From positions 2,360 to 66,359 of the forward strand of contig JBAZZO010000010.1 in NCBI GenBank assembly GCA_041658765.1: a stretch of DNA of 64,000 bases. Reading direction: 5' to 3'. The stretch comes from Coriobacteriia bacterium. GTDB taxonomy: Bacteria; Actinomycetota; Coriobacteriia; Anaerosomatales; JBAZZO01. Made by a program: the position numbers and the translations under genes. Shown in pieces: positions 1,064 through 22,924 of the stretch (the first letter of the stretch is position 1; each line of letters opens with the position of its first letter). Below the pieces are notes generated by a model, which searched no databases, had not been told where the DNA came from, and saw only the letters and a program-made list of their open reading frames with translations.

Positions 1064-1068
1064 CTAGA

Positions 1069-2067: not shown

Positions 2068-2396
2068 ATCGACCTCCTCCGCCTGTCAGGATAGCAGGTG
2101 CCCGCAGTTTCCTTGGCCCTTCGGTGCGGGCGTGTCTGATACGAGTGCCGAGGCTACGTGACGAACCGAACGTGCCTGCACGGTTTGGTGCGATGGCCCA
2201 AAGGAGCCGCTGGAGACCAGCGGCGTGAATCGCCGCCCACATTCGCATTACCGTTGCAACGCACAGGGACTTGCCCAGAACTCCCGGATTCGAGACCGAC
2301 AGACTGGGAGCCCTGCTGTCGCCGAACCAGTCGGGCACGTCGCGCTTCTCTGGCTTGACGTCGCCGAAGTTTCACTGATATGCTCTGTTTCACCGA

Positions 2397-3476: not shown

Positions 3477-4294
3477 AGAGCAGACTGGACTACCCGCCCG
3501 ACGCGGTCGAAGCAGCGAAGTCGGTGCTGGTGGAACTCGCCCACATCCTCGGCGAGTACCGCGACGAAATGGTCATCGTAGGCGGATGGGTGCCGTTCCT
3601 CCTCATGCCGGATGCTGCCGGGCACGTCGGCAGCACCGACGTCGACATCGCGCTCAACCACCTGGCGGAGACCGACGAGGTCTACGCCAGGATCAGCGAG
3701 TTGCTCAGGGACCACGGCTACGTGCAGGATGCACGCCAGCCTTTCATCTGGTTCAAGGACGTGGGGTTCGAAGGCGCGGATGCGGCAAGGGTCGAGGTCG
3801 ATTTCCTCGCCGGAGAGTACGGCGGCACGAACAAGGAGCACCGCACTCAGCGCATCCAGGACATGAGACCGCGGAAGGCGCGGGGCGCCGATCTGCTTCT
3901 CGATGGATCCGTCGAGCGTCAGATCGAGGCACGACTGCCGAACGGCGCGATCGACATGGTCACGGTGAAGGTCGCTGGCGTGGTGCCCTATCTGGTCATG
4001 AAGAGCTCGGCGCTGGGTTCCAGGGTCAAGGAGAAGGACGCGTACGACATCTGGTTCACGTTGGCCAACTACCCCGGCGGTGCCGCTGCTGTCGTCGAGG
4101 AGTTCAAGCTCTTCGCGACCCATGGGCTAGTACTCGAAGCTCTTGCACTCCTCGACGACAAGTTCGCCTCGCCACAGCATTTCGGTCCCGTATCGGTCGC
4201 CCTCTTCCTTGAAGCCGAAGGCGAGGAGGCTGAGCGTATCAAGCGCGACGCATACGAGCGGGTCCGGGCTCTCATCACAGAGCTTCGCGGCTGA
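3470..4294 (+). CDS. nucleotidyltransferase, AbiEii/MNT-like toxin candidate
   Basis: 274 aa. VIVGGWVPFLL...GSTDVDIAL matches the minimal NTase signature G[GS]-x(9-13)-DxD. It overlaps the upstream wHTH gene by 7 nt, which is the typical AbiE arrangement. Confidence 0.6.
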   Translation: MVKSRLDYPPDAVEAAKSVLVELAHILGEYRDEMVIVGGWVPFLLMPDAAGHVGSTDVDIALNHLAETDEVYARISELLRDHGYVQDARQPFIWFKDVGFEGADAARVEVDFLAGEYGGTNKEHRTQRIQDMRPRKARGADLLLDGSVERQIEARLPNGAIDMVTVKVAGVVPYLVMKSSALGSRVKEKDAYDIWFTLANYPGGAAAVVEEFKLFATHGLVLEALALLDDKFASPQHFGPVSVALFLEAEGEEAERIKRDAYERVRALITELRG

Positions 4295-4295
4295 C

Positions 4296-4360
4296 ATGGC
4301 CGGCCCCACATCGATCGAGTGGACCGAGGCGACCTGGAACCCGGTCACTGGGTGCCACCG
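4296..4360 (+). pseudogene. N-terminal remnant of a DUF5131 (phage Gp37/Gp68-like) gene
   Basis: MAGPTSIEWTEATWNPVTGCH reproduces the conserved N-terminus IEWT..TWNP.TGC of that family. Similarity stops after ~21 codons, and the rest of track ORF 4143..4511 is unrelated. Confidence 0.45.
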
Positions 4361-4581
4361 TGACCGTCTCACGCGCGCGGTCGATGAGCGTAACCACTTC
4401 GTCCTCGATGTGATGTCGAAGCCACGACTCTGGGTGACAGGTGATCGGGATGAGCTCGAGCGACTGGCTCGAGAAGGGTCGCATCAAGCGTCAAGCAGCG
4501 GATCGCGCTGAGATCCAGCGGCTGTTGGCGGTTGTCGACCGGGACCTCGCGGACGCGAGCGATCTCATGGTTAGGCCGATG

Positions 4582-4636
4582 GTTTCCTTAGTCCAAGGAC
4601 ACATCTGGCATATTGTTTCCTTGCGCCAAGGACACA
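4582..4636. repeat. tandem imperfect repeat, 2 copies, 32-bp period
   Basis: GTTTCCTTAGTCCAAGGACACAT (4582-4604) and GTTTCCTTGCGCCAAGGACACAT (4614-4636) are 20/23 identical. They sit in a locally AT-richer non-coding patch. Confidence 0.7.
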
Positions 4637-4721
4637 TTACGAAGACATCGACGTCGAAGGCGGCATCATTCACGTCATGCCCGCACGGGCTTGGATGCTA
4701 GGGGTGTAGGCGCCCTGCCGC

Positions 4722-5660
4722 CTATCCGACTAGATCGCGAACGCTCTGCGCTGCGACAGGCGAGATGCGATCGAGCGCGGAGGCCGACTTCGCCACCCGG
4801 CTCGCCCACGACTTTCCCCTCACGGCAAGCGCCTCCCAGGCAAGAACGAGATCCCCCGGCCGGTCTGCGTGCAGCACCTCGAGTATCTGCGCCGCCTGTG
4901 AAAGGTCCTTCTCCCGCTTCGGCTGCATCGCAACAGGACGCTCCCCCGCGATCATCAACTTGTGGAGAGCGAACCGCGCCGCATCCGGCACGTTCACCGC
5001 GACGACCCCGCCGCCGACCACTGCCGCCCTCACGGACGAGTCGATGAGATAGTCCAGGAATCTCAAGGGCTGCGCGGCGGCGGCGAACCTGGGCAGGCTC
5101 ACGGGACGCGATCGGGCCCTTGCGGCCGGCGTCAGAAGGTCCACCCGCAAGCTTCGCCCCCGCACCTTGAACGAGGTGGTCGGACTCTTGGGATCGAGAC
5201 CGGGGACCGGCAGGAACCCCATCTCCAGGCTATCCCGTGCTGAAGGCAGGTCGGCGTCGACGCCCGGAACCGCGATATCGAGCTTGGGATCGGCCGCTAT
5301 GTCGACATCCTGAGTCCTCAGAGAGGTGCCCCAGCGGACCCCGAGAAGGTTGCCGAGCACGACGAACGCGTGAGTCCCGACAAGGACTCCGCCGGCGTGG
5401 AACACCCCCGCGTCCGCGAGCGCACGAAGCACTCGGGCCGAGGGCGCATCGGTGACCATCGCGCCACCTGCGCGCAGCAGAGCCGCCAACCGCTCGATGG
5501 ATCGTTGGTCGGCGGCGACGTTGGCTCTCCCCTCGGCGAACCGATCGGCCAACTCGTCGAGCGCGGCGTCCCGACGGCCCAGATAGGTCTGGCGCTTCGT
5601 CCCGCCAGGCCCCATGTGCTGGAAGTAGTAGTACTCCTGGCCCTTCACCATCTTCGTCAC
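4722..5660 (-). CDS. GSU2403-family nucleotidyltransferase-fold protein (start possibly further upstream, up to 5765)
   Basis: Track ORF, 312 aa (GTG 5660). ...KGQEYYYFQHMGPGGTKRQTYLGRRD... and the overall layout match my recollection of this family. The frame stays open and protein-like upstream (LQRQPLEVQTIYAELLEQIAVYEASRTIGHTAGSFVTK). There AAGGAGG lies 7 nt before a CTG at 5765, with no ATG/GTG/TTG available. Confidence 0.55.
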   Translation of the reverse strand: MTKMVKGQEYYYFQHMGPGGTKRQTYLGRRDAALDELADRFAEGRANVAADQRSIERLAALLRAGGAMVTDAPSARVLRALADAGVFHAGGVLVGTHAFVVLGNLLGVRWGTSLRTQDVDIAADPKLDIAVPGVDADLPSARDSLEMGFLPVPGLDPKSPTTSFKVRGRSLRVDLLTPAARARSRPVSLPRFAAAAQPLRFLDYLIDSSVRAAVVGGGVVAVNVPDAARFALHKLMIAGERPVAMQPKREKDLSQAAQILEVLHADRPGDLVLAWEALAVRGKSWASRVAKSASALDRISPVAAQSVRDLVG

Positions 5661-5782
5661 GAAGGAGCCGGCGGTATGTCCGATGGTACGCGAGGCCTCA
5701 TAGACAGCGATCTGCTCAAGAAGCTCGGCGTAGATCGTCTGGACTTCGAGCGGCTGACGCTGCAGGGGTTCACCTCCTTGTA

Positions 5783-5816
5783 GTTATACGCACAATACGT
5801 CGATGCTGCGTATAAC
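5783..5816. promoter_or_regulatory. perfect 10-bp inverted repeat (operator or hairpin)
   Basis: GTTATACGCA (5783-5792) and TGCGTATAAC (5807-5816) with a 14-bp spacer. It is AT-rich and lies between the stop of the oxidoreductase gene and the SD of the NTase gene. Confidence 0.3.
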
Positions 5817-5828
5817 ACAAGTCGAGCG

Positions 5829-6749
5829 CTACGCCACGTTGATGATCACGTTGCCGCGCTTGTGCCCCGTGTCGACGTACCTGTGCGCGTCGACTATGTC
5901 GTCCAGTGCATAGGTGCGATCGATCACCGGCCTGATCTCACCGCGCGCCGCCAACTCGGCGAGCAACACCAGATCCTCGCGCCGGAGCTTCGGTGAGCCG
6001 TCGTCGACCGAGACGCAGGCTCCGCCGGGAGCCAGCACTCGCCGGCACCTCCGAAGGGCACTGGCGCTCTTGTTCTTGCCCACGGCGTCGAAGATCAGGT
6101 CGTAGCGCTCCGCCCCGTCCGCGAAGTCCTCGACGGTGTAGTCGACCACCCTCGTGGCGCCGAGAGATGTCACAAGCTCCACGTTCGCAGTGCTGCAGAC
6201 ACCCGTCACCTCCGCGCCGAGGTGCCGGGCGAGCTGCACCGCCGACGTGCCCACGGCCCCGGACGCCCCGAAGACGAGGACGCTTTGTCCCGCTCGAACG
6301 CCGGCCTTGCGAAGGTAGCTGAGAGCGAGGAGGCCACCGTAGGGAATGGCTGCCGCCTCCTCGTCGGTGAGGTTGGCCGGTCGCGTTGCCAGAAGTCCGT
6401 CTTCCGGCCAACACACGTACTGCGCATACGTCCCGAAGAGGTGCCGATTGAAGCCGAAGACGCGGTCGCCCGCCTTGAACGACCTAACGTCCGGTCCGAC
6501 CGCATCCACCACCCCTGAGAGCACCATGCCGAGAACCGGTTGCCTCGGTGCGTTCCAACCGAGCACGAGCCGCGCCATGATCCGGTAAGCGGGACTCAGT
6601 CTCAGCCCCCGGACGTAGGTATCACTCGATGCCACGGGGGTAGCCAAGATGCGTATGCGCACCTCGTTCTTCCGAGGAGCTGGAGTCGCGATCTCCTCGA
6701 CCCGGAGAACCTCAGGCGGGCCGTAGCGCGTGCAAACTACTGCTCTCAC
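5829..6749 (-). CDS. NAD(P)H-dependent medium-chain dehydrogenase/reductase (quinone oxidoreductase-like)
   Basis: Track ORF 5829..7037 trimmed to GTG 6749, which forms a GTGA overlap with the stop of the upstream gene. VRAVVCTRYGPPEVLRVEEI...VLVFGASGAVGTSAVQLARHLGAEVTGV is the MDR fold with a GxGxxG dinucleotide site. Confidence 0.75.
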   Translation of the reverse strand: MRAVVCTRYGPPEVLRVEEIATPAPRKNEVRIRILATPVASSDTYVRGLRLSPAYRIMARLVLGWNAPRQPVLGMVLSGVVDAVGPDVRSFKAGDRVFGFNRHLFGTYAQYVCWPEDGLLATRPANLTDEEAAAIPYGGLLALSYLRKAGVRAGQSVLVFGASGAVGTSAVQLARHLGAEVTGVCSTANVELVTSLGATRVVDYTVEDFADGAERYDLIFDAVGKNKSASALRRCRRVLAPGGACVSVDDGSPKLRREDLVLLAELAARGEIRPVIDRTYALDDIVDAHRYVDTGHKRGNVIINVA

Positions 6750-7447
6750 TCTGCGCCCTTGAGGGAAGCGATCGCGGATGGGCTGAACCCCTTGGCGATC
6801 AGCCACACCGCCAGAACCATCTCCTGCAAGAAGATCGGGAGATTCAAGACGATCTGGGGCGCCGACATGGGATCGATGGCCTGGAACACGACCAAGATGC
6901 TTGCCGTGAAGCCCAGCGTGACTGCAACGATCCCCCAACCGGACAACCATCGAGGGATGAGCCTCGATCGATAGAACACGAGGTAGTACATCAGGCCGGC
7001 TGGGTAGAAGGCCAAGGTCCCTGCCATGCCCGCCCAACTCCGGACCGCCATCAGCAGTGCGCCTGAGGCTTGAAGGTACGACGAAGCCGGAGCGCCGGCC
7101 TCCACGAGCCCACGACTCAATGTCACCATCGATAGCACCGCGATCGCCCCGATGCTGTAGAGAACTGCCTCGATGATCCTCAAGCCGACGGCGCCGAGCG
7201 ACAGACCCTCGCTGTATCGCCGCAACACGGGATACAGCGCGATCGCGATGCTGGCGGACGCGAAGAACGCGACCAGCCCGAAGAGCGCTCCCGCAGCCAC
7301 CTGGTTCTGGTGTGCGGCGATCTTGGCAAGGATGTCGGCCCCTTTGAGGATCGGATCCAGAAGCACCACCCTGCCGAGCAAGCTTGCAGTCGTAGCGACT
7401 ATGAAGAGCACTCCTGCGACTACCGCTGTTCGCCTGTCTTTGCTCAT
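6746..7447 (-). CDS. DUF4386-like polytopic membrane protein (paralog 1)
   Basis: Paralog of 8041..8742. Shared features: N-terminal DRR.A...GVL(F/Y)IV and C-terminal L(I/V)PRWLS.WG...QEMVLA(V/I)WLIAKGFSP. ATG 7447 is preferred over TTG 7471 because of an SD-like GGGAAG and because it aligns with the paralog start. Confidence 0.6.
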   Translation of the reverse strand: MSKDRRTAVVAGVLFIVATTASLLGRVVLLDPILKGADILAKIAAHQNQVAAGALFGLVAFFASASIAIALYPVLRRYSEGLSLGAVGLRIIEAVLYSIGAIAVLSMVTLSRGLVEAGAPASSYLQASGALLMAVRSWAGMAGTLAFYPAGLMYYLVFYRSRLIPRWLSGWGIVAVTLGFTASILVVFQAIDPMSAPQIVLNLPIFLQEMVLAVWLIAKGFSPSAIASLKGAE

Positions 7448-7549
7448 GATCGACTTCCCATTCCTCGTCAACTCTCGTGTGTCCCGTCCTGAGAACCTGA
7501 CCGAGACGTGTCAGGTTGAAGCTCTCTTGCTAGGTGGCGTGCTCCACCC

Positions 7550-7882
7550 CTAGACGAATGCCACAACGGCCAGGGTGCCTACGACGGCCGCTTCGGCGGC
7601 GAGAGCGCCCGCAGCAGCAGGACCGATCTTCCGGTACGTGTAGCCCGCCATGACCGAAAGCAGCACGAATCGCACGACCTGGCCCACGGCCGGTCCGCCA
7701 GCCTGAAGTCAGGCGAAGCCGGACGCGACCACGAGGCCCCCCGCCACCAGACAGACTCCCGCCAGCACCCGCGGCGACAACTGCTTGCGCCTGCCCCTCG
7801 CGGCGTACCAGATGGCGAAGGCGACGAACACGACGATCCCCGCGAGCATGGTTGCGATGGGCACAAAGAACTTGCTGTCCAC
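7550..7882 (-). pseudogene. small membrane-protein ORF interrupted by an in-frame TGA
   Basis: Not in the track because both halves are <60 aa. GGAGGTGA SD, then GTG 7882: VDSKFFVPIATMLAGIVVFVAFAIWYAARGRRKQLSPRVLAGVCLVAGGLVVASGFA, then TGA (7709-7711). The same frame continues LQAGGPAVGQVVRFVLLSVMAGYTYRKIGPAAAGALAAEAAVVGTLAVVAFV to a TAG at 7550-7552. Confidence 0.3.
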
Positions 7883-8040
7883 GCCGATCTCACCTCCGTC
7901 TGACGATGCTTGTCCCGTGCGGCGTGCCTGGCGTCTGGCGCTCGACCGCGCGCCGACACTGGCATAGAGCGCAAACCTTGAACGTACGTCAGGTTGACGT
8001 GCCTGCTACGCGCGCCCCAGCCCGCGAAGCCGGCCGCATC

Positions 8041-8742
8041 TCACGCAGCGAGTGGCAGCCGATCGCCTTCGGGAGCGATCGTGCCGGGGCTGAAGCCCTT
8101 GGCGATCAGCCAGATCGCGAGCACCATCTCCTGCACCGCGAGCGGGAACATCAGGAAGTCGAGCGAGAGGCCCGCCATCCGCGCGAGGGGCGCTACGAGG
8201 TAGAAGACCGCTCCGACAAGTCCCCAGATCGAGAGCCATCGAGGGACGAGTCGCGCGCGAAAGAGCAGCCAGTAGAACATGAGAGCGCCGATGACGAAGG
8301 GCAGCGCGATGAGCTGTTCCCACACCAGCCCCTCGGCGGTCTGCAGCATCGCCGCGACCGGAGCGGCCGCGGCCGACGGCGCGGCGCTCATGGCGATGAG
8401 CACGAGCCAGATGAATGCGCTGATGACGTACGTCATGCCCTCGAGTGCTCCTCGGAAGATGACGTAGCCCATCGAGAGCACTTCGCTGAAGCGGCGGCCG
8501 ATCGGATAGAAGACCGCGGGCAGAGCCGACAGCGCGAAGCCCATGGTGAGCACGAGGAGCGCGCCGACGACCGTCGCGGTGCGGTGAGCGGCGATCTGCG
8601 CCAGGATGTCCGTGCCGGCGGCGAACGAAGGCATGATGGCCATGCCTAGCACGCCCGAGGCGGTGCCGACGATGTAGAGCACGCCGATGATGGTGGCAGC
8701 CCGGCGATCGGTGATCGCGCCGTCCGTTCGCTTAGCCGACAT
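8041..8742 (-). CDS. DUF4386-like polytopic membrane protein (paralog 2)
   Basis: Track ORF, 233 aa, hydrophobic multi-pass, paralogous to 6746..7447. It is the last gene of the ArsR-led operon. Confidence 0.6.
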   Translation of the reverse strand: MSAKRTDGAITDRRAATIIGVLYIVGTASGVLGMAIMPSFAAGTDILAQIAAHRTATVVGALLVLTMGFALSALPAVFYPIGRRFSEVLSMGYVIFRGALEGMTYVISAFIWLVLIAMSAAPSAAAAPVAAMLQTAEGLVWEQLIALPFVIGALMFYWLLFRARLVPRWLSIWGLVGAVFYLVAPLARMAGLSLDFLMFPLAVQEMVLAIWLIAKGFSPGTIAPEGDRLPLAA

Positions 8743-8998
8743 CGCGCATCATCTTCTCGATGGACTCGACCGACGTGCGGATCGCGCCGATGTCGGCCTG
8801 CATGCTCGACTGCGTCTCGCGCGTCTCTTGGGCGAGTCTGGTGTACTCGGCGTTCAGCTCCTCGAACTGCGCGCCGCTGCGCGACTTGATCTCCTCCATC
8901 TGGATCTGGTGACGCCGACGCGAGGGCGTGGTGACCACGCTGATCCCCAGGATCACGAACATCACGACGAGAAACGCCGCGGGTCCATCGATCGTCAT
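8732..8998 (-). CDS. hypothetical single-TM coiled-coil protein
   Basis: Track ORF, 88 aa. N-terminal TM helix (AAFLVVMFVILGISVV) followed by a charged helical region. It overlaps both neighbours (4 nt and 11 nt), consistent with operon membership. Confidence 0.45.
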   Translation of the reverse strand: MTIDGPAAFLVVMFVILGISVVTTPSRRRHQIQMEEIKSRSGAQFEELNAEYTRLAQETRETQSSMQADIGAIRTSVESIEKMMRDVG

Positions 8999-9333
8999 TG
9001 CTTTCCCCTTCCGGTTGGTTCGCTGTCCGCGCTCAGGGTCTTCGTCGCATCGGTGACGCGCTCGGGCGTCAGGTGCTCGTCGAAGTCCGTCACGCTGAAG
9101 AAGCGAAGCGCCTTTCCGTCTTCCGAGATCTCGTGGCGTCCGACCACGAGTCCCGCCTTCTCCAGTACCTGCAGGTGCATGTGGAGGAGCGGACGTCCGA
9201 TCCCGAGCTCCCGGGCCAACTCGCTGACGTAGCTCTCACGACTTCTCAGGGCTGCGAGGATCCGCAGCCGATGAGGGTTCGCAAGGGCGCTCAGCATCTG
9301 GAGCAACTGGTCGCCGGTCCGATCGTCCGTCAT
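8995..9333 (-). CDS. ArsR/SmtB-family HTH transcriptional regulator
   Basis: Track ORF trimmed to ATG 9333 (AAAGGAGAGGAC SD). LSALANPHRLRILAAL...YVSELARELGIGRPLLHMHLQVLEKAGLV is the ArsR-type wHTH. Confidence 0.75.
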   Translation of the reverse strand: MTDDRTGDQLLQMLSALANPHRLRILAALRSRESYVSELARELGIGRPLLHMHLQVLEKAGLVVGRHEISEDGKALRFFSVTDFDEHLTPERVTDATKTLSADSEPTGRGKQ

Positions 9334-9549
9334 GTCCTCTCCTTTACCTGTCAGCGTATCCTGACACGTGATGTTCCAACGTGTCAACACCAATTCGCGA
9401 AGAATCTTCCGCCAGGGGCAAAGGAAGAAGCCCCGGTCAAAGCGACCGGGGCTTCGATCAGTTCGAGTGCGGGCGCGATCCTCCGTTTGCGTGTGTCAAC
9501 GCCGGGTAGTATTCTCGGTACTACCATCGGCACTACCGCAAGGACCACC

Positions 9550-9825
9550 ATGGGCAAGATCAACATCTCGCTTCCCGACGGCATGCTCGAGGAGATCGAC
9601 CGCCGAGCAAGCGCAGCCGGCGCCACCCGCAGCGGCTTCCTCCAGGACGCCGCGGGACACTACCTGACCGCGCTCGACGAAGAGGCGGCGTGCGCCGCCC
9701 GGGCCAAGCGTGTTGGTCACGCACTGCAGAAGATGCGCTCGCTCGCGCCGGTGGTGGGCGCGCCGGGCTCGGCGAAAGCCATCCGCGAGATCCGCGATGC
9801 ACCGTCGCGTTGGGAGCAGCGGTGA
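9550..9825 (+). CDS. vapB: ribbon-helix-helix (CopG/VapB-type) antitoxin
   Basis: C-terminal 91 codons of track ORF 8998..9825. MGKINISLPDGMLEEIDRRA...RSGFLQDAA is an RHH motif. GTGA overlap with the downstream PIN gene. Confidence 0.7.
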   Translation: MGKINISLPDGMLEEIDRRASAAGATRSGFLQDAAGHYLTALDEEAACAARAKRVGHALQKMRSLAPVVGAPGSAKAIREIRDAPSRWEQR

Positions 9826-10247
9826 GCGGCAGCGGTCCCCGCTATGTGGTTGTCGACAGCTCGGTCGCCTTCAAGTGGTTCTGCAGCGACGACGAGAGTT
9901 CCGTCGATGAGGCCCTCGCGCTGTTCGCCGACCACCTCTCGGGCCGCATCACACTCATCGCACCGGCCCACCTGCCCGCCGAGGTGCTCAATGCCCTGGG
10001 ATGCCGCCCGAAGGTGACCTCGACGCAACTGGTCACCGCCGCTGAAGGTCTGGCCGAGAGCGAACTGCTCTACCCTGCGTGGGACCGTGATCTCCTCTGC
10101 GAGGCCGCGGTGCTCGCTCGCAAGCACAAGCTCACCATCTACGACGCACTCTTCCCTGCGCTCGCGATCCAGCTCGGCTGCGAGTTGGTCACCGCGGACA
10201 GGGCTCACGCTCGGCTGAAGGAGTGCGCGGTCCGGCTACTGCCCTGA
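9822..10247 (+). CDS. vapC: PIN-domain ribonuclease toxin VapC
   Basis: Track ORF 9690..10247 trimmed to GTG 9822. YVVVDSSVAFKWF..., ...TIYDALFPALA... and ...LVTADRAHARL supply the conserved acidic residues of the PIN fold. Confidence 0.75.
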   Translation: MSGSGPRYVVVDSSVAFKWFCSDDESSVDEALALFADHLSGRITLIAPAHLPAEVLNALGCRPKVTSTQLVTAAEGLAESELLYPAWDRDLLCEAAVLARKHKLTIYDALFPALAIQLGCELVTADRAHARLKECAVRLLP

Positions 10248-10275
10248 GACGCCACAAGCCCCCGCCGGGCGCCGA

Positions 10276-10671
10276 CTACTCATGCTCCGCGAAGAGACGG
10301 CCATGAACCGCGAGCTCGACCACCGGGACTGCTTCGACTCTGTCGGCGAGCGGATAGCGCTTCTCACCAGGGTAGAGCACGGCGACGCGATCCAACCCCA
10401 AGTCATCCAGAGCGATCCTGATCGACGGCGTCATCTTCGGCGCATCGGAACGCTTGCACTCCACCCCCACCAAGCACTCTCCCCGGCGCAGGATCAGGTC
10501 GATCTCGGCACCCTGATGGGTCGCCCAGAAGAACGCCTCGTCATGCGGCTCGCTCGCCAACACCTGCTCGATCGCGAACCCCTCCCAGGACGCGCCGAGC
10601 TTCGGATGACTCACCAAGGCCTTCGGAGTGTCGATGTGGTCGGACAGCACCACGTGAATCCGCCATCGCAC
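10276..10671 (-). pseudogene. C-terminal fragment of an AAA_14/DUF4143 ATPase gene
   Basis: Only the DUF4143-like C-terminus is present (..HPKLGASWEGFAIEQVLA...). The Walker-A N-terminal two thirds seen in the full-length paralog 10806..12131 are missing. The break coincides with a decayed tRNA-end repeat (10697-10728). Confidence 0.5.
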
Positions 10672-10696
10672 AACTGTTTTTCATGGTGTTCCGGAT

Positions 10697-10728
10697 CCGG
10701 CCTGACCTGCGATTCCGGTAAGGTGGCC
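10697..10728. repeat. decayed copy of the tRNA-Met 3' flank plus 3' end (putative old att site)
   Basis: CCGGCCTGACCTGCGATTCCGGTAAGGTGGCC versus 13834-13869 CCGGTCTGACCTGCGATTTCTTTGGTAGCGGGGGCC. The first 19 nt match 18/19, then similarity to the tRNA 3' end is gapped. Confidence 0.45.
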
Positions 10729-10805
10729 ATGGTGACCCTACGCGAAGTACAGATTCCGCAGAATGCGCCCTTGACAGACGGACACCTGCGCTCTAGCGTG
10801 GCGGC

Positions 10806-12131
10806 ATGAGCCTGCACCCGGTACTCGACGAGAAGCTGAGCGCTGCACTGGCGGAAGTACCGCCGGTCGCGCTCACCCGGCGCGACGCCCGGCTGCCAGC
10901 CGTGGCCGGCAAGGTGCACGCGGTGATCGGGATGCGGCGCGCGGGGAAGACGATGTTCCTGCGCCAACTGCTGGACGAGCGCCGGGCTACCCTACCTGCT
11001 CCGCAGGCGGTCTATCTCAGCTTCGACGACGACCGGCTAGCCGGCCTCGAGTTGGAGCAGCTCGACTTCCTGCTCGAGGAATACTACCGGCGCTATCCCG
11101 CGATGCGAGGGCGCAAGACAGTGAGCTGGTTCCTCGACGAGATCCAGCTCGTGCCCGGCTGGGAGCGTTTCGTCCGACGGGTACTGGACTCAGAGAGAGT
11201 CGAGATCGTCGTCTCCGGCTCCTCGGCGCGTATGCTCTCGCGCGAGGTCCACACCTCCCTGCGCGGTCGCGGGATGGCGACCGTCATCCGGCCCTTCAGC
11301 TTCCGTGAGTTCCTGCGCTACCGAGGTGAGGAGCCCGGCAGCGAACCTCGACGCTGGACACCGGCCGAGCGGTCGCTGATCGAGAAGCGCTTTCGGGAGT
11401 ACCTGGTCGAGGGCGGGTTCCCCGAGACGCAGGGAATACCAGCCACGCTTCGAATCGAGCTCTTGCAGGGCTACGTGGATACCGTGCTCTTCCTCGACGT
11501 TGTCGAGCGCTACGGGGTGTCGCAGGTGGCGGCCCTCCGCTGGCTAGTGCGTCAATGTTTGCGCAATCCGGCCGGGAGCTTCAGCGTCCACCGCCTGCAC
11601 CAGGACCTGAAGGCCCAAGGGCACGGCGTGGCGAACGAGGCCGTGCACGCGATGCTCGGCCATCTCCTGGACGCCTTCCTGCTCAGCGCCGTGCCGCTTG
11701 CGACCGAATCGGAGCGCCGTCGCAACTCGAACCCGCGCAAGCTCTATCCCGCAGACCCTGGCCTCATCAAGGCCTTCGACGCCAGCGGCCGCTCGAACGT
11801 CGGACACGCACTCGAGACCGCCGTGCTCAACGAACTGGAGAGGCGCGGGATGGAGGTCGGCTACGTGAAGACGGGTGACGGGCTGGAGGTGGACTTCCTC
11901 GCGCGCCGACCGGCTGGCGGAGAGGAATTGATCCAGGTGTGCGCAGACCTGTCGAGTCCAGAGACGCGCGCGCGTGAGCTGCGAGCCTTGACCGCAGCAG
12001 CGGAAGACCATCCGCGTGCTACGCAACGATTGCTGGTGCTCGACCGGGATGCGCTCGCACGCGCCGACGCGCCAGGGGTCGACGTACTGCCTGCCTACGA
12101 GTGGCTCCTCGCGGCACCGGAAGACGACTGA
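10806..12131 (+). CDS. AAA+ ATPase with DUF4143 C-terminal domain (AAA_14 family)
   Basis: Track ORF, 441 aa. AVIGMRRAGKTMFLRQ is the Walker A. WFLDEIQ is the Walker B. The C-terminal part is DUF4143-like. Confidence 0.7.
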   Translation: MSLHPVLDEKLSAALAEVPPVALTRRDARLPAVAGKVHAVIGMRRAGKTMFLRQLLDERRATLPAPQAVYLSFDDDRLAGLELEQLDFLLEEYYRRYPAMRGRKTVSWFLDEIQLVPGWERFVRRVLDSERVEIVVSGSSARMLSREVHTSLRGRGMATVIRPFSFREFLRYRGEEPGSEPRRWTPAERSLIEKRFREYLVEGGFPETQGIPATLRIELLQGYVDTVLFLDVVERYGVSQVAALRWLVRQCLRNPAGSFSVHRLHQDLKAQGHGVANEAVHAMLGHLLDAFLLSAVPLATESERRRNSNPRKLYPADPGLIKAFDASGRSNVGHALETAVLNELERRGMEVGYVKTGDGLEVDFLARRPAGGEELIQVCADLSSPETRARELRALTAAAEDHPRATQRLLVLDRDALARADAPGVDVLPAYEWLLAAPEDD

Positions 12132-12137
12132 ACCAGC

Positions 12138-12199
12138 CCTTCGTTGGACAGCCCGTTGGACACTCGTGCGCCAAAGCGAACAGGCCAGACACGGTTACC
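12138..12199. repeat. 62-bp direct repeat, copy 1
   Basis: CCTTCGTTGGACAGCCCGTTGGACACTCGTGCGCCAAAGCGAACAGGCCAGACACGGTTACC. It has 3 mismatches to 13773-13834. It starts 6 nt after the ATPase stop. Confidence 0.85.
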
Positions 12200-12340
12200 G
12201 GAAAAAACCACACGCGCACTCCCACGAGACCAGCTTACCTTTGACGCCACGTGGGAGGCAGGTCTGACACGCAATCGGCGGGCGGTCACCAGCTTACGGG
12301 GGTCCGCGACGCGGAAGGCTTGCCAACGTTCTCCAGCTTA

Positions 12341-12382
12341 TTTAGACTTCAACCACGAAGTCTAAATAGCGCTCAACGCTAT
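12341..12382. promoter_or_regulatory. two adjacent palindromes upstream of fic
   Basis: TTTAGACTTC-aaccac-GAAGTCTAAA (12341-12366) is immediately followed by ATAGCG-ctcaa-CGCTAT (12366-12382). Both are AT-rich and lie 25-65 nt upstream of the fic start. Confidence 0.3.
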
Positions 12383-12407
12383 TCAACTCGGCTGAGTAGG
12401 GGGACTG

Positions 12408-13559
12408 ATGCGCCGAGGACTGTCGGGGAGGTACGAGGTCAGCACGATCGGCGGCGAGACCTTTCGCGCCTTCGTGCCGGAACCGTTGCCACCGAATCCC
12501 CCGCTTGACCTGTCCGCACTGCAAAGATCTCTCGAGCGCGCGTCCATCGCCATTGGCCGGCTGGACAGCGTTTCGACCCTGCTGCCGGACACGGCGCTGT
12601 TCCTATACACCTACGTACGCAAAGAGGCGGTGCTGTCTTCGCAGATCGAAGGCACCCAGTCCTCCCTCTCGGACTTGCTGCTGTTCGAACTCGAGGAAGC
12701 GCCGGGCGTACCGTTCGACGACGTGGTAGAAGTCAGCAACTACGTTGCCGCGCTGGATGAAGGCCTTGCTCGGCTGAGGGGCGGCTTCCCCATCAGCGCA
12801 CGACTCATTCGAGAGATCCATGCGGTTCTCCTCTCCCGAGGTCGCGGCAGTGAGAAGCAGCCCGGTGAGTTCCGCCGGAGTCAGAACTGGATCGGCGGGA
12901 CGAGGCCTGGGAACGCGGTCTACGTGCCTCCGCCTCACGAGGAGGTCCAGCCGTGCATCGCCGCGTTAGAGCGATTCCTCCACGACGAGGGCTCGAGCCT
13001 GCCCCTTCTGGTCAAGGCGGCGCTTGCACACGCCCAGTTCGAGACCATCCACCCTTTCCTTGACGGCAACGGGAGAGTGGGCCGACTCTTGGTCACGTTG
13101 CTGCTGTGCGAGGGCGGGGTGCTTCGTGAGCCGCTGCTCTATCTCAGTCTGTACATGAAGCAGAATCGGGATGAGTACTACCGTCTGCTCAGCAGGTGTC
13201 GAACCGAGGGCGAATGGGAGGCGTGGGTCGCCTTCTTCCTCGAGGGAGTCGCGGAAACGGCCGACGACGCGGTCGGGACGGCGCGCAGCCTGGTCGGCAC
13301 GTTCGAGAGTGATAGGCGACGGATCCAGGACCTCGGACGCAAGGCCGGCTCGGCTCTGCGCGTGCACGACGCTCTGAAGTCCAGGCCGGTCCTGCTGCTG
13401 CCCGATGTCGTGACACGCTCCGGGCTGTCGTTCCCAGCCGCTGCATCCGCGATGGACTCCCTTGAGAAACTGGGAATCGCTCGCGAGGTGACCGGCAAGA
13501 AGCGGAACCGCGTGTTCGCGTACTCGGAGTACCTTCGCCTGCTCTCGGAAGGAACCTGA
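12408..13559 (+). CDS. fic: Fic-family protein (AMPylase-type) with N-terminal inhibitory motif and C-terminal wHTH
   Basis: Track ORF, 383 aa. HPFLDGNGRVGR is the canonical Fic motif HxFx(D/E)GNGRxxR. SSQIEGT matches the (S/T)xxxE(G/N) auto-inhibition helix. AGGGGG SD. Confidence 0.85.
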   Translation: MRRGLSGRYEVSTIGGETFRAFVPEPLPPNPPLDLSALQRSLERASIAIGRLDSVSTLLPDTALFLYTYVRKEAVLSSQIEGTQSSLSDLLLFELEEAPGVPFDDVVEVSNYVAALDEGLARLRGGFPISARLIREIHAVLLSRGRGSEKQPGEFRRSQNWIGGTRPGNAVYVPPPHEEVQPCIAALERFLHDEGSSLPLLVKAALAHAQFETIHPFLDGNGRVGRLLVTLLLCEGGVLREPLLYLSLYMKQNRDEYYRLLSRCRTEGEWEAWVAFFLEGVAETADDAVGTARSLVGTFESDRRRIQDLGRKAGSALRVHDALKSRPVLLLPDVVTRSGLSFPAAASAMDSLEKLGIAREVTGKKRNRVFAYSEYLRLLSEGT

Positions 13560-13772
13560 CCCCGATGGCCCTGAACCCCATCGTCTTCACCGAGAACGTC
13601 GTCAGGAGCTTCCTGCGCTACCCGCTGACGGCCTACTCGCTGGCCAATCGCAGCACACGCCTGTAGCCGACGGCCTGAATCACCGATCGGCTTCGAGCGG
13701 AATGGGTGATCGGCTTGGACCGGAATACGCAGCTAGGGCAGCGTCAGGCGGTGCGGCGGCGGTCTGTCCCTA

Positions 13773-13834
13773 CCTTCGTTGGACAGCCCGTTGGACACTC
13801 GTGCGCCAAAGCAAACAGGTCAGACACGGTTGCC
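13773..13834. repeat. 62-bp direct repeat, copy 2 (21 nt from tRNA 3' end)
   Basis: CCTTCGTTGGACAGCCCGTTGGACACTCGTGCGCCAAAGCAAACAGGTCAGACACGGTTGCC, 59/62 identical to copy 1. Confidence 0.85.
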
Positions 13835-13855
13835 CGGTCTGACCTGCGATTTCTT

Positions 13856-13856
<1 letters not shown>
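13817..13856. terminator. bidirectional hairpin terminator downstream of tRNA-Met
   Basis: AGGTCAGAC (13817-25) pairs with GTCTGACCT (13837-45) around an 11-nt loop. On + it is followed by GCGATTTCTTT, and on the other strand by GTTTGCTTTGG. Confidence 0.45.
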
Positions 13857-13932
<76 letters not shown>

Positions 13933-18558: not shown

Positions 18559-19200
18559 TCAGTCGCGCGTCTCGTCGTCCTTGGCCGCGACCATCTCCTT
18601 GACCTTCATGAGACGGGTCAGGTTGCCGCGCTCGGCCTCGTCGAGCTTCATCTGGATGTCGCGCACGGTCTCCGTGATCTGCGGGATGAGGACGTACTCG
18701 AGCGCGTTCACGCGACGGCGCGTACGCTCGATCTCGGCCGCGAGCAGCTCGATCGCTTTCTCGCGCTCCGCGAGGTCGACCATCCTCGGCGCGACGTCGC
18801 GCAGGCTCGCCAAGGCGCGGTCGAGCACGGCGGGCGTCGTCGCCAGCGAGTAGCCCGCGCGAAGAGGAAGCTCGCCGACCTCGAAGACCGGCACGCGAAC
18901 GCTCATCACGTTGCGCTCGCCCACCGACAGCGCGTCGACCGGCTCGCCGGCGAGCAGCGCCCTCGAGAGCGCCGACCCGCCCGCCTCGCCTCGCGCGACC
19001 GCGAGCAGTCCGAAGGCGGAGGCGAGCTCGCGCTCGACCTCCGAGCGCAGACGGCGGTCCTGGGCGATGCGCGAGAGGAACGCCTTCATCAGTTCGTCGA
19101 GCTTGTCCTTGAGCAGCTTGTGGCCTCGCACCGCGACGTCGCCGCGCCGCTTGAGGCGCAGCAGCTCCATCCGGTTGGGGTTCACGCGCAGCGTCGCCAT
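18559..19200 (-). CDS. atpD: V/A-type ATP synthase subunit D
   Basis: Track ORF, 213 aa. MATLRVNPNRMELLRLKRR...KLLKDKLDELM... is the conserved subunit D N-terminus. It is the last gene of the operon. Confidence 0.85.
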   Translation of the reverse strand: MATLRVNPNRMELLRLKRRGDVAVRGHKLLKDKLDELMKAFLSRIAQDRRLRSEVERELASAFGLLAVARGEAGGSALSRALLAGEPVDALSVGERNVMSVRVPVFEVGELPLRAGYSLATTPAVLDRALASLRDVAPRMVDLAEREKAIELLAAEIERTRRRVNALEYVLIPQITETVRDIQMKLDEAERGNLTRLMKVKEMVAAKDDETRD

Positions 19201-19201
19201 G

Positions 19202-19390
19202 CTATCTGGTCGCCCCCCACACCACGAGCGCCGCCGCGACGAGAAGCAGCGTCACGTTCACCCATCGCAGCGCCGAGATCCAGCGCGCCGGGTCCGCGCC
19301 CGCCTGTCGCGCCGCGCGGGCGCTCGAGACCTGGAGCGCCACGACCGCCGCGAACAGCAGCGCGAGTATGAGGGTCAGCGCTTCGCGCAT
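19202..19390 (-). CDS. small two-TM protein inserted between atpB and atpD
   Basis: C-terminal 62 codons of track ORF 19202..19651: MREALTLILALLFAAVVALQVSS...VNVTLLLVAAALVVWGATR. It starts 4 nt after the atpB stop and ends 1 nt before the atpD start. Confidence 0.4.
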   Translation of the reverse strand: MREALTLILALLFAAVVALQVSSARAARQAGADPARWISALRWVNVTLLLVAAALVVWGATR

Positions 19391-19394
19391 CTTC

Positions 19395-20819
19395 TCAGGC
19401 CTTCCCCGCTTCCGCCCCGCCGGGCAGGTACTTCTCGACGAACTCGTCCTTGATGCGCTTGAGCTCGCTGCGCGGCAGGAGCGCCGCGAGTTCCCATCCG
19501 AGCGAGAGCGTCTCCTCGATGCTTCTCTCCTCGCCGTCGCCCTGGCGGATGAAGCGGTCCTCGAACGCGTCGGCGAAGGCGACGAACGCCTTGTCCGTGT
19601 CGGAGAGCGCGGCGTCGCCCAGGATGACGGCGAGTTCTTTCGCCGAGACACCGCGGGCGTACGCGCCGAAGAGCTGGTTGCTCAGGTCGGCGTGGTCCTC
19701 GCGCGTCTTGCCCGGCCCGATGCCCTTCTGCTTGAGGCGCGAGAGGCTCGGCAGCACCGCGATCGGCGGGTAGACGCCGCGGCGGTGGAGCGGGCGGTCG
19801 AGGATGATCTGGCCCTCGGTGATGTAGCCGGTAAGGTCGGGGATGGGGTGCGTCTTGTCGTCGTCCGGCATCGTGAGTATCGGCACCTGCGTGATCGATC
19901 CCGGCATCCCCTGCACGCGCCCGGCGCGTTCGTAGAGCGTGGCGAGGTCGGTGTAGAGGTAACCGGGATAGCCGCGCCGTCCCGGCACCTCTTTGCGCGC
20001 GGCCGAGACCTCGCGCAGCGCCTCGCAGTAGTACGTCATGTCCGTGAGGATGACGAGCACGTGCATGCCGAGGTCGAACGCGAGGTACTCCGCGCACGTC
20101 AGCGCCATTCTAGGCGTCGCGATCCGCTCGACGGCGGGGTCGTCCGCGAGGTTGAGGAAGAGCACCGAGCGCTCGACCGCCGCTGTGTCGCGCAACTCCG
20201 TCATGAAGAAGTCGGCGTCCTCGAAAGTGATGCCCATCGCCGCGAAGACGACGGCGAAGTCGCCTTCGGCCTTCTCGCCCGCCCGCGTCGGGTCGTCGCT
20301 GCGGGCCAGCACCGCCGCTTGACGCGCGATCTGCGCCGCGAGCTCGTTGTGCGGCAGGCCGCTTCCCGAGAAGATCGGCAGCTTCTGGCCGCGCACGAGC
20401 GGGTTGAGGCCGTCGATGGCCGACACACCCGTCTGGATGAAGTCGTCGGGGAAGTCGCGCGCCGTGGGGTTGATCGGGCTGCCGTAGACGGAGCGGCGCT
20501 GCTCGGCGATGATCTCCGGTCCGCCGTCGCGCGGCCGCCCCAGCCCGTCGAAGACGCGGCCGAGCATGTCGCGCGAGACGCCGATCTCCAGCCCGCGGCC
20601 GAGGAAGGTGACCTTCGTCTCGGACGGGTTCGACCCTCTCGTGCCGCCGAACGCCTGCACGAGCGCGACGTCGCCCGAGACCTCGAGCACGTTGCCGAGC
20701 GAGCGCACGCCGTTCGGGAACTCGAGCTCGACGAGCTCGCCGTACGTGACGTCGGCGACGCGCTCCACCAGAAGCAGCGGCCCGACGATGTCGCGGGTGG
20801 TGGTGTATTCGCGGCTCAT
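19395..20819 (-). CDS. atpB: V/A-type ATP synthase subunit B
   Basis: Track ORF, 474 aa, with a strongly conserved subunit B sequence (..[25 protein letters not shown].., ..[19 protein letters not shown]..). Confidence 0.95.
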
Positions 20820-22591
20820 CGCGCGCCCTCCTTCTTGCGCGGGGCCGCGCCCGCGACGAGCTGGGTCTCGATGTCGCCCGCCAGAGAGTCGAACAGCGCG
20901 TCCGCCTCTTCCTCGGCGACGTACTTCGCACGGGTGATGCGCTCGCGCACCTGCGCCGCGAGGATGTCGTCGAGCGACGCCCCCGCGCTGAGGGCGACCA
21001 GCGCGCGCTCGTGGAAGAGCAGGATCGTCTCGAGGAGCCGGTCCTGCTTTCGCAGGCTCGTGAACTGGTCGTCGTCCCGGAAGGCGTTCTGCTGGAGGAA
21101 GTCCTCCCGCAGCGACTTCGCACTCTCCATCAGCACCCGCTCCTCGGGGCTGATCGCCTCGAGGCCGACGAGACGCACGATCTCGGAGAGCTCGTTCTCG
21201 CGCTGCAGGATCGCCATCGCGCGGTCGCGGCGCTGCCGATACTCCAGCGAGACGTTCTCCTCCCAGAACGGCGTGACCTTGTCCAGATAGAGAGAGTAGC
21301 TGGTCAGCCAGTCGATGGCCGGGAAGTGTCTCTCATAGGCGAGGCTATCCTGGAGCGCCCAGAAGACCTTCACGACTCGCAGGGTGTTCTGCACGACCGG
21401 CTCGGAGAGGTCACCGCCGGGAGGCGAGACGCTGCCGACGACAGAGACCGAGCCGGAGCGGTCGCCGAGTGTGTCGACCTTCCCGGCGCGCTCGTAGAAC
21501 GCGGCGAGCTTCGTGCCGAGATACGCGGGGAAGCCCTCCTCGCCGGGCATCTCCTCGAGGCGGCCGGAGATCTCGCGCATCGCCTCGGCCCAGCGGCTCG
21601 TCGAGTCGGCTTGGAGCACGACCTCGTAGCCCATGTCGCGGAAGTACTCGGCGATGGTGATCCCCGTGTAGACGCTCGCCTCGCGCGCGGCGACCGGCAT
21701 GTTCGAGGTGTTGGCGACGAGCACCGTGCGCTCCATGAGCGGCCGGCCCGAGTACGGGTCGGTGAGCTCGGGGAACTCCATGAGCACGTCGGTCATCTCG
21801 TTGCCGCGCTCGCCGCATCCGATGAAGACGACGATCTGCGCGTTGCTCCACTTCGCGACCTGGTGCTGGGTGACCGTCTTGCCCGCGCCGAACGGCCCGG
21901 GGATGCACGCCGTGCCGCCCTTGACGAGCGGGAAGAACGTGTCGATGACGCGCGTGCCGGTGACGAGCGGCTCGCCCGACGCGACCTTGCGCCCGTAGGG
22001 GCGCCCGACGCGGACGGGCCAGACCTGCCGCATGGTGAGGTCCTTCTCGGCACCGTCGGCGGTGCGCACGCGCGCGACCGGGTCGAGCACCGTGTACGTG
22101 CCGCCCTCGATCGACTCGAGCACGCCGGAGACTCCCGGCGGCACCATGATGCGGTGCTCGATGACGGGGTTCTCCTGCACCGTGCCGATGACGTCGCCGG
22201 GAGAGACCTTAGCCCCGGACTTGAGCGTCGGCACGAACTCCCAGCGCGACGTCGGGTCGAGGCCCGGCGCCGTGATGCCGCGCGTGAGGAACGCGCCGGC
22301 CTGCGCCCGCAGCACGTCGAGCGGACGCTGCACGCCGTCGTAGACCGACCCCAACAGCCCCGGTCCCAGCTCGACCGAGAGCGGCGCGCCGGTCGCGAGC
22401 ACGGGGTGACCGGGGCCGAGGCCGTCGGTCTCCTCGTACACCTGGATCCACGCGCGGTCGCCCCGCATCTCGATGATCTCGCCCATGAGGCCGGCCTCGC
22501 CGACCCTGACCAGATCGAACATCCTCGCATGCGCGAGCCCGGACGCCACTACGAGCGGTCCGGCGACCTTGATGATCGTCCCTTGCTCCAT
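20816..22591 (-). CDS. atpA: V/A-type ATP synthase catalytic subunit A
   Basis: Track ORF, 591 aa. Walker A GPFGAGKT in ..[15 protein letters not shown].. and the conserved ..[24 protein letters not shown]... Confidence 0.95.
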
Positions 22592-22924
22592 CTAGCCTTC
22601 CTCCACTGAGAACGGGACCGACGTGCCGAGCGCGCGCTCCACGGCGCGCGCCAGCCTCGCCGCTCCCACCCCGCCGGCGCCGCCGGCGCCGGGGATGACG
22701 GTGACCGCGGGGACCGGACGGTCCGCGGCCTCGGCCACGAGGTCGTCGATCGCCTCGTAGACCGGTTCGGTGACGAATACGACGCCGTACGCGCCGCTCG
22801 CGAGCTCGTCCCAGAGCCCGCGCGCGTCCTCGGGCCTCTCGAGCGCGAACGCGGCGAACCCCAGCGGGCGGAATCCCGCCACGCTCACGGCGTCGCCGAC
22901 GATGGCGATGCGGGTCGCGCTCAC
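22592..22924 (-). CDS. atpF: V/A-type ATP synthase subunit F
   Basis: Track ORF, 110 aa. IAIVGDAVSVAGFRPLGF...VVFVTE is the subunit F pattern. Its position between C and A fits. Confidence 0.75.
   Translation of the reverse strand: MSATRIAIVGDAVSVAGFRPLGFAAFALERPEDARGLWDELASGAYGVVFVTEPVYEAIDDLVAEAADRPVPAVTVIPGAGGAGGVGAARLARAVERALGTSVPFSVEEG

Follow-up and report, generated by a model that had tools for sequence, protein, structure and literature searches.

The DNA analysed here, referred to as the window, is a stretch of 64,000 nt from a Coriobacteriia bacterium (GTDB lineage Bacteria; Actinomycetota; Coriobacteriia; Anaerosomatales; JBAZZO01), positions 2,360 to 66,359 of the forward strand of contig JBAZZO010000010.1 in GenBank assembly GCA_041658765.1. 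It carries a gene for an initiator-type tRNA-Met (anticodon CAT; 13856-13932, minus strand; detected by ARAGORN and scoring 63 bits with the Rfam tRNA model) that anchors a low-GC defence and toxin-antitoxin island. The tRNA-proximal 1.6 kb of this island contain a gene for a SoFic-type Fic AMP-transferase bracketed by two direct copies of a 62-nt sequence, and it is this fic segment, its repeats and its possible origin that are described below. The tRNA shows the hallmarks of an initiator, GGG/CCC in the anticodon stem and no Watson-Crick pair at 1:72; an Rfam scan of the window gave nothing beyond two tRNAs. An earlier note on this DNA had reported 62-bp direct repeats at 12138-12199 and 13773-13834, identical at 59 of 62 positions, the second of which was said to end 21 nt from the 3' end of the initiator tRNA-Met. 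A repeat search and inspection of the tRNA bore this out in every detail.

On the tRNA strand, the sequence 3' of the gene reads AAAGAAATCG, an ascending arm CAGGTCAGAC, a loop CGGGCAACCGT, a descending arm GTCTGACCTG, then TTTGCTTTGG... and two copies of TGTCCAACG. The arms, which are short (10-14 bp), enclose a loop containing CCGG and form a hairpin at 13814-13848 (minus strand). When the tRNA-proximal 62-mer (B2, 13773-13834, minus strand) was folded together with the 18-mer at 13834-13851, a structure of -31.8 kcal/mol (z -6.7) was obtained. Because this fold is stable and is followed by a U-rich tail (UUUGCUUU), we regard it as a terminator-like hairpin of tRNA-Met. The same hairpin is located 3' of tRNA-Met in four relatives (L009, L011, L024 and L025), all of which are related to the window at the family level only. 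The 62-mer is made up of the loop and descending arm of this hairpin together with about 40 nt of its 3' flank; the repeated block begins within the loop and holds no tRNA sequence. The earlier note had overlooked that the 62-mer is part of a terminator hairpin, and likewise a third piece of the same site at 10697-10714 and the extension of the foreign DNA to beyond the left end of the contig.

The displaced copy of the flank (B1, 12138-12199, minus strand) was recognised by a profile of native flanks (nhmmer E 3.9e-7) and is composed of the hairpin loop, the descending arm, the T-rich tail and the tandem TGTCCAACG. The start-to-start distance of the two direct repeats is 1635 nt. Their leading 40 nt are free of mismatches, and if an indel of 1 nt is allowed the similarity extends by another 3-4 nt up to a common CCGG. 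Having no partner arm, B1 does not form a hairpin and folds no better than shuffled sequences (z +0.31). It carries the arm variant of the relatives, and B2 gives a perfect stem.

A search of the 64 kb with the 40-mer, allowing up to 3 mismatches, detected only these two copies, with none expected from 100 shuffles. The 22-nt core of the 62-mer had no match in 185,579 GTDB species genomes and none in viral contigs, and B1 and B2 with their flanks (12100-12420 and 13560-13860) had none in plasmids or phages. Four matches to the core in the JGI metagenomes all represent one homologous locus, within a gene and without flanking similarity, and are due to chance. The 62-mer is the tRNA-Met 3' flank of this lineage and is specific to the locus; within the about 80 kb of this genome that were available, the dispersed genome-wide repeat that the earlier note had kept in mind as a refutation did not materialise. 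Nor is the arrangement an assembly collapse, since the source, an 80-kb megahit contig, was built with k=141, which exceeds the repeat length. Logan unitigs of the same sample (k=31) end exactly at the 40-nt identical core, as is expected of a true repeat. Behind the terminator the 9-mer TGTCCAACG occurs twice with a 12-nt period, at 13776-13798 and again in B1 at 12141-12163, and could be a protein-binding site. A similar pair, two copies of GTCTAACAC with an 11-nt period, occupies the matching place in the distant relative L025 (about 1462-1482); in both DNAs the tandem lies 19-20 nt past the tRNA-Met terminator.

Between the repeats we found what the earlier note had listed, namely fic with a palindromic promoter region, an open reading frame (ORF) of 33 codons and a degenerate tandem repeat with a 23-bp period. 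The fic gene (12408-13559, plus strand) encodes a class II protein of 383 amino acids with the Pfam domains Fic_N and Fic. It matched the PADLOC SoFic model over its full length (residues 19-381, E 8e-120), but its score with the NCBIfam SoFic equivalog (153.6 bits) was below the cut-off of 550, so that it is a member of the family rather than an equivalog. All features by which we defined SoFic are present: the full-length model match, the active-site motif HPFx(D/E)GN(G/K)RxxR (here HPFLDGNGRVGR) and the N-terminal inhibitory motif (S/T)xxxE(G/N) (here SSQIEG). SoFic of E. coli is reported to be a single-gene anti-phage system, an AMPylating toxin of the abortive-infection type, and a 47-aa ORF downstream of it is reported to encode the small antitoxin AS1 (PMC12249575). 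The window shares with that locus the full-length SoFic model, the class II inhibitory helix, the Fic active-site motif and a short ORF after the stop codon. Unlike AS1, the short ORF of the window is demonstrably a helicase stub, which might at most have an AS1-like role. At the DNA level, the window fic gene had no match in E. coli genomes.

The stub (ORF33, 13565-13666, plus strand) begins 6 nt past the fic stop codon. The earlier note had taken it for the truncated N-terminus of a helicase, rightly so: over 32 aa it is 69% identical (tblastn) to the start of a DEAD/DEAH (COG1205-like) helicase at 14295-14390 of L012/L013, where the ORF continues into a DEAD-domain helicase. In L013, a helicase stub of 17 codons (8271-8321) directly follows fic and the full helicase is found 6 kb onward. 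The fic gene once had a helicase partner, the remainder of which was deleted. In general, the gene after SoFic starts 2-6 nt past the stop codon (the window, L013, L014 after 9149, L011 at 1-482 and 1841-) or 57 nt past it (L017, 9210-9341), with ATGGCC or GTGGCC as the first codons, and is often a mere stub (helicase of 33 or 17 codons, NERD of 43 or 4 codons).

The promoter/operator region of fic (12320-12407, plus strand) contains the boxes TTGCCA-17-TAGACT, overlapping a palindrome with a 13-bp stem (12340-12372, z -4.68) and accompanied by a second short palindrome. These adjacent palindromes within 12340-12395, TATTTAGACTTC...GAAGTCTAAATA and AATAGCG...CGCTATT, overlap the -10-like box and are probably an operator for autoregulation. 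The region is kept upstream of SoFic in L011, L014 and L017 and partly in L009. SoFic loci are homologous from about 70 nt upstream of the ATG, a stretch that takes in promoter and operator, until some tens of bases beyond the stop codon, and homologues of 72-83% identity occur across phyla. Between ORF33 and B2 a spacer of 106 nt (13667-13772) contains two 19-nt units (13685-13703 and 13708-13726) with 89% identity and a 23-nt period, which are possibly arm-type sites of a recombinase. Homologues of this spacer and of two other orphan spacers, 12204-12320 and 10715-10759, were sought elsewhere and none were found.

The third piece of the tRNA-Met flank, A' (10697-10714, minus strand), comprises the spacer, the ascending arm and the loop CCGG and is identical to 13834-13851 at 17 of 18 positions. 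It is on the same strand as the native copy, and its end coincides with the CCGG where the 62-mer starts; the hairpin loop is the breakpoint common to A', B1 and B2. We take A' as real because it lies only 1.5 kb from B1, shares the CCGG end and adjoins the breakpoint of a truncated gene. This gene (10276-10671, minus strand) is a C-terminal fragment of a DUF4143 ATPase which covers only positions 94-160 of the Pfam DUF4143 profile. There is an in-frame stop just upstream of it, and the lost 5' part would fall at the A' site; no coding continuity was seen across the reconstructed empty site. An alignment aimed at a remnant of the tRNA 3' part beside A' scored no better than shuffles.

On the plus strand the order of all elements is A' - ATPase - B1 - fic - B2 - A - tRNA, so that an ATPase gene is bracketed by complementary half-sites in permuted order. 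This ATPase module (10760-12136, plus strand) consists of a palindromic promoter region and an AAA_14-DUF4143 ORF (10806-12131; Pfam; PADLOC PDC-S01, E 3.8e-92), which makes it a candidate single-gene defence system. At E<=1e-60 more than 6000 homologues of the ATPase were detected; identity is 80-90% for the best 120, and homologues of this similarity occur in other phyla. The few of these with source names are from Acidobacteriota and Nitrospira, and many come from contigs 1.5-1.7 kb long. At the DNA level, similarity to other genomes is limited at 10760/10769 and 12131/12136; it begins 37-46 nt ahead of the ATG and ends within 0-5 nt of the stop codon, and the upstream 37-46 nt hold a palindrome around a TTGACA box. 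L103-L108 share with the window only the ORF and these 37-46 nt, and all 15 contigs of P0292 show one context, so that on these contigs the ATPase was rejected as a repeat-flanked mobile unit. The ATPase is evidently a gene-sized and very mobile module without visible ends.

Both modules lie within the low-GC island, which occupies 1-13855 of the window, ends at the 3' end of tRNA-Met and continues leftwards for another 2373 nt, as far as the contig end. The foreign DNA thus amounts to at least 16.2 kb (13.9 kb in the window and 2.4 kb beyond). Its GC content is 0.64 (range 0.59-0.67) as compared with about 0.70 to the right, with a break at tRNA-Met, and its GC content at third codon positions (GC3) is 0.79-0.87 as compared with 0.90-0.93. 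In tetranucleotide distance from chunks of the core, the fic segment deviates by 6 and the ATPase segment by 4 standard deviations. The compositional scan that the earlier note had proposed consequently identified the DNA between the repeats as foreign by all three measures. Besides SoFic and the DUF4143 ATPases the island encodes PRTase-CE, an ORC/Cdc6-like ATPase, a CARF-like protein, AbiEi/NTP_transf_8, HicB-PIN, ArsR and two DUF4386 proteins. The first three of these, in this order, form a conflict-system trio at the far end of the island (1-2100 of the window and the left end of the contig; L098, 10001-14108). A tRNA fragment was not detected in the 16.2 kb of island, the distal boundary of which lies past the contig end. 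The earlier note had spoken of a decayed integrative islet; the helicase stub and the lack of an integrase agree with this, but the islet is merely the tRNA-proximal 1.6 kb of the larger island. Composition supports a foreign origin, and SoFic and PDC-S01 appear to be mobile defence cargo with sharp module edges.

Occupancy of the tRNA-Met site varies between the relatives. In L024, tRNA-Met and the hairpin are followed by core-like genes with flat GC, which represents a site free of an island; L009 and L011 contain different islands. In L009 (ENA ERZ27297473, k141_3255867) SoFic alone (78% amino acid identity) is situated between 105-nt repeats composed of the tRNA-Met 3' half and the terminator. 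These repeats start in the anticodon loop and extend through the terminator, with a pseudo anticodon stem in front of the distal copy. A gene for a Xer-like tyrosine recombinase is located 1.3 kb upstream of the tRNA. Beside the stop codon of this gene a 13-mer, CCGGAATCGCAGG (5431-5443, plus strand), is identical to the window junction at 10702-10718 (reverse strand); this is where the attachment (att) site of a recombinase-bearing segment would be expected, but the match is statistically weak (E 0.32). In L011, whose contig lacks an intact tRNA, a SoFic-NERD island ends in a pseudo anticodon stem, a tRNA-Met 3' half and the terminator hairpin (7520-7631), the distal att site of a third SoFic-containing tRNA-Met island; TetR and sulfate-transporter genes follow. 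At least 467 nt of the 5' end of the NERD gene are repeated on either side of fic in L011. The tRNA-fMet flanks of relatives, to which the earlier note had referred for comparison, provide a parallel in L009 and an empty site in L024, but at family-level distance. From the islands in L009 and L011 we conclude that integration at the initiator tRNA-Met has recurred in this lineage and that SoFic is a recurrent passenger.

The L009 islet resembles that of the window in its tRNA, its hairpin, the possession of SoFic with its own promoter/operator, the lack of an integrase inside and its size (1394 as compared with 1635 bp). It differs in the 105-nt repeats from the anticodon loop, in the opposite orientation of fic, which points away from the tRNA, in the lack of a helicase stub and in the recombinase gene upstream of the tRNA. 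Inversion between the hairpin arms does not account for the opposite orientation, since it would invert one copy of the flank and the copies are direct.

We observed directly that the repeats exist and match the tRNA flank, that the DNA is foreign in composition, which genes it carries, that a stub of the helicase is left and that relatives have parallel structures; from this we infer that integration took place, where the crossover lay, in which order the events followed and what kind of enzyme acted. In our estimation there is about an even chance that the structure arose by accretion, elements having been inserted serially at the tRNA-proximal att site, with the fic segment arriving last and then decaying. 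The tRNA-Met flank would serve as the identity block of the attachment site for integrative elements landing there, and each incoming circle would recombine with the tRNA-proximal site by a crossover at CCGG in the hairpin loop. In the oldest step, the former end of the island (now ...TTCCGGAT and the truncated DUF4143 gene) would have been joined to the ascending arm. A 1.5-kb element with the PDC-S01 ATPase and the att site A'|B1 would then have left A' at 10697-10714 and B1 at 12138-12199. Finally, an element with SoFic and the helicase, and with an att site ending in B2, would have rebuilt the terminator and displaced B1 by 1635 nt. Three integrations by crossover in the loop would produce the observed order from A' to the tRNA without any extra deletion. 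Afterwards the last element would have decayed, the helicase being reduced to 33 codons and any recombinase gene lost, so that an integrase-less islet resembling a cis-mobilizable element (CIME) remained. At present SoFic would be expressed from its own operator-controlled promoter as an AMPylating toxin for abortive infection and the tRNA transcript would be terminated by B2 and the 18-mer, while the repeats could still free a circle of 1635 bp with the aid of a trans-acting tyrosine recombinase or RecA.

Several observations weigh against this history. No Phage_integrase is present among the called genes, and tblastn with the L009 recombinase gave no match in the window and the left end of the contig. 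A' is short and reaches by itself a BLAST E of 0.03-0.08. Copies of the ATPase module elsewhere have neither A' nor B1. In L009 and L011 the repeats begin at the anticodon loop, the canonical crossover point, whereas the window repeats no tRNA sequence, so that a crossover in the hairpin loop is deduced from the breakpoints only. Neither a circle junction nor an empty site in a close relative was seen; the search for close relatives yielded none near enough to order the events (best NlpC/P60 homologue 62%, best TldD 70%), and the organism was present in only one of the samples searched. Moreover, the same structure can result from a single insertion of the ATPase segment.

Because A' and B1 bracket the adjacent ATPase with the same site, two orders of insertion compete. 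According to the other order, which we consider unlikely, a 1.5-kb ATPase circle (A'|B1), opened at the CCGG of the loop, entered an unrelated site 1.6 kb away from the tRNA, in an older island already holding fic. The fic gene would then not be an insert and the 62-nt bracket would be incidental, B2 being the resident flank and B1 the end of the neighbouring insert; before the ATPase arrived, the junction of fic with the truncated DUF4143 gene would have read ...GGTGTTCCGGATCCGGAAAAAACC.... The circular permutation of the half-sites, with A' left of B1 and both ending at CCGG, speaks for such an event, and both partial copies would stem from it at once. Deletion of 10701-12201 gives a perfect 14-nt palindrome, TTCCGGATCCGGAA, but most of it pre-exists on one side of the junction. 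A hairpin of A' and B1 would equal the native one (-24.7 as compared with -27.3 kcal/mol), and the ATPase gene family is evidently very mobile, yet the target and the att site share only CCGG, which implies an illegitimate event or one at a pseudo-site. The parallel in L009, where SoFic alone is flanked by att repeats at the same tRNA, would become a coincidence; in addition, no recombinase is present, and the ATPase modules of other genomes again count against an origin from an A'|B1 circle. It is distinctly unlikely that canonical tandem att repeats like those of L009 were trimmed by independent deletions, the loop being a deletion hotspot instead of a crossover point. Palindromes are known as deletion hotspots, the truncated DUF4143 gene and the helicase stub testify to further decay of the island, and L009 and L011 do have canonical anticodon-loop repeats at this tRNA. 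However, at least three separate deletions would be needed, and two of these would have to stop at one and the same CCGG, one from each side. Beside A' and B1 nothing of the tRNA 3' half is left, and the hairpin with its 10-14 bp arms is short.

Even less credence can be given to a RecA-dependent insertion of the Campbell type, in which a fic circle with homology to the tRNA-Met flank entered by a single crossover without any site-specific enzyme. SoFic does occur between direct repeats of local DNA at three unrelated loci (62 nt in the window, 105 nt in L009 and at least 467 nt of NERD in L011), and a difference of 3-10% between the copies is what donor and recipient DNA would show. Against this, RecA would act poorly on a 62-nt repeat whose perfect core spans 40 nt, A' and the common CCGG breakpoint are left unexplained, and the start in the anticodon loop together with the pseudo anticodon stem of L009 is the signature of a site-specific attP. 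Flanking repeats are also missing at four complete plasmid SoFic loci and in L017 and L101, and these six loci likewise weaken the idea of a SoFic-specific mechanism that makes long target duplications. It is hardly conceivable that the 62-mer is a dispersed repeat resembling repetitive extragenic palindromes (REP) or miniature inverted-repeat transposable elements (MITE), a chance match or an assembly artefact. Our view is limited to about 80 kb of this genome, and within these a REP or MITE can be ruled out: there are two copies in 64 kb with none expected, B1 is unfolded and the 62-mer alone forms no hairpin, the segment has no terminal inverted repeats, and the genome and viral collections lack the core. 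Plasmids and phages gave no match to either copy with its flanks, the JGI match is a single chance locus, the assembly k-mer exceeds the repeat, and the sequence is a conserved tRNA flank. A transposon or insertion sequence with target-site duplication was rejected as well, the repeat being 62 nt long (as compared with 2-15 bp) and the segment having neither inverted repeats at its ends nor a transposase. The simple tandem duplication of the tRNA-distal flank which the earlier note had offered as an alternative would require a second fic and does not fit the single copy present.

On the accretion history, the structure is of a known kind: att-site scars enclose a decayed module without an integrase, at the end of a defence island linked to a tRNA. 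Both accretion and integrase-less CIMEs, in which the att sites are kept and the integration genes lost, are established for tRNA- and tmRNA-linked islands, as in the ICESt1-related elements of Streptococcus thermophilus and the ssrA islands of Dehalococcoides (PMC5704250, PMC3146451). As in these, foreign DNA adjoins a tRNA gene at its 3' end, modules are marked off by direct repeats of the target flank, the tRNA-proximal module is devoid of integration genes, and relatives have other elements or none at the site. The attL/attR-like 62-nt copies of the tRNA-Met flank enclose only SoFic and the helicase stub. Unlike the accretion islands, the window has no integrase on its contig. It further differs from them in that the repeat is without tRNA sequence and begins in the terminator loop 21 nt past the gene, in the permuted site halves of the neighbouring module and in the modules being single genes of 1.5-1.6 kb. 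It is unusual that the modules have the size of single genes and that the pieces break at a common point in the terminator loop.

These peculiarities recall two other systems. Integrative elements exploiting host Xer recombinases at dif (IMEX) are, like the elements proposed for the window, small integrase-less circles with a copy of a chromosomal inverted-repeat site which are inserted serially. The window hairpin can be read as arm, spacer of 6-7 nt and arm, like the core of a tyrosine recombinase site, but this is a resemblance in architecture only, and the site is a tRNA terminator and not dif. Integron cassettes consist of one ORF and one attC and are arrayed beside attI. The likeness lies in the combination of one gene with one copy of a recombination site per unit, arrayed from a fixed anchor, and in L009 also in a recombinase gene outside the array on the opposite side of the anchor. 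In contrast to integrons, however, the 62-mer is not an imperfect palindrome like attC, there is no IntI, the cassettes have their own promoters, the units number two at most, and most island genes are not separated by repeats. An integron cassette array proper was rejected for the same reasons, as the 62-mer alone is not palindromic, an integron integrase is lacking and GTTRRRY-like words occur in direct orientation only. We mention as very unlikely that the tRNA-Met terminator hairpin might be a Xer/dif-like core site at which a trans-acting tyrosine recombinase stacks integrase-less minicircles of 1.4-1.6 kb. Just as doubtful is the reading of each minicircle as a cassette that combines one self-promoted defence gene with a single copy of the site, for which SoFic (window and L009) and the PDC-S01 ATPase (window) would be the examples. 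If true, this would be an integron- or IMEX-like platform for single-gene defence and would explain travel across phyla with gene-sharp edges.

The window adds a case from uncultured high-GC Coriobacteriia in which the initiator tRNA-Met is a landing pad for a defence island and putative attachment-site scars delimit SoFic and the candidate PDC-S01 ATPase, each a single-gene defence module. What goes beyond routine annotation are the breaks in the CCGG loop in all three scar pieces, the minimal SoFic islet at the same tRNA in a family-level relative, and the homologues of SoFic and the ATPase, which are 72-90% identical across phyla and have edges only tens of bases outside the ORFs. Should the breakpoints correspond to a real crossover site, a compact system would be at hand to study the exchange of single defence genes that have no recombinase of their own.

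Two further SoFic loci deserve mention. In L101 (744-3390), a SoFic homologue (83%) and an unknown gene are inserted, without flanking repeats, between yvcK (CofD) and whiA, within the conserved actinobacterial yvcK-whiA-gap cluster. In L014, about 140 nt at about 75% identity, with an exact core of 20 nt, occur both upstream of a PIN7-Fic block (6450-6580) and inside the downstream gene for an ABC-2 permease (9350-9480); by sequence comparison this repeat appears to be a diverged fragment of the target gene around the inserted block. On the other side of the tRNA in the window, the high-GC core contains a V-type ATPase operon (D, B, A, F, C/AC39, K, I; about 18560-23560, corresponding to 16152-21152 of L001) just beyond NlpC/P60-TldD-PmbA.

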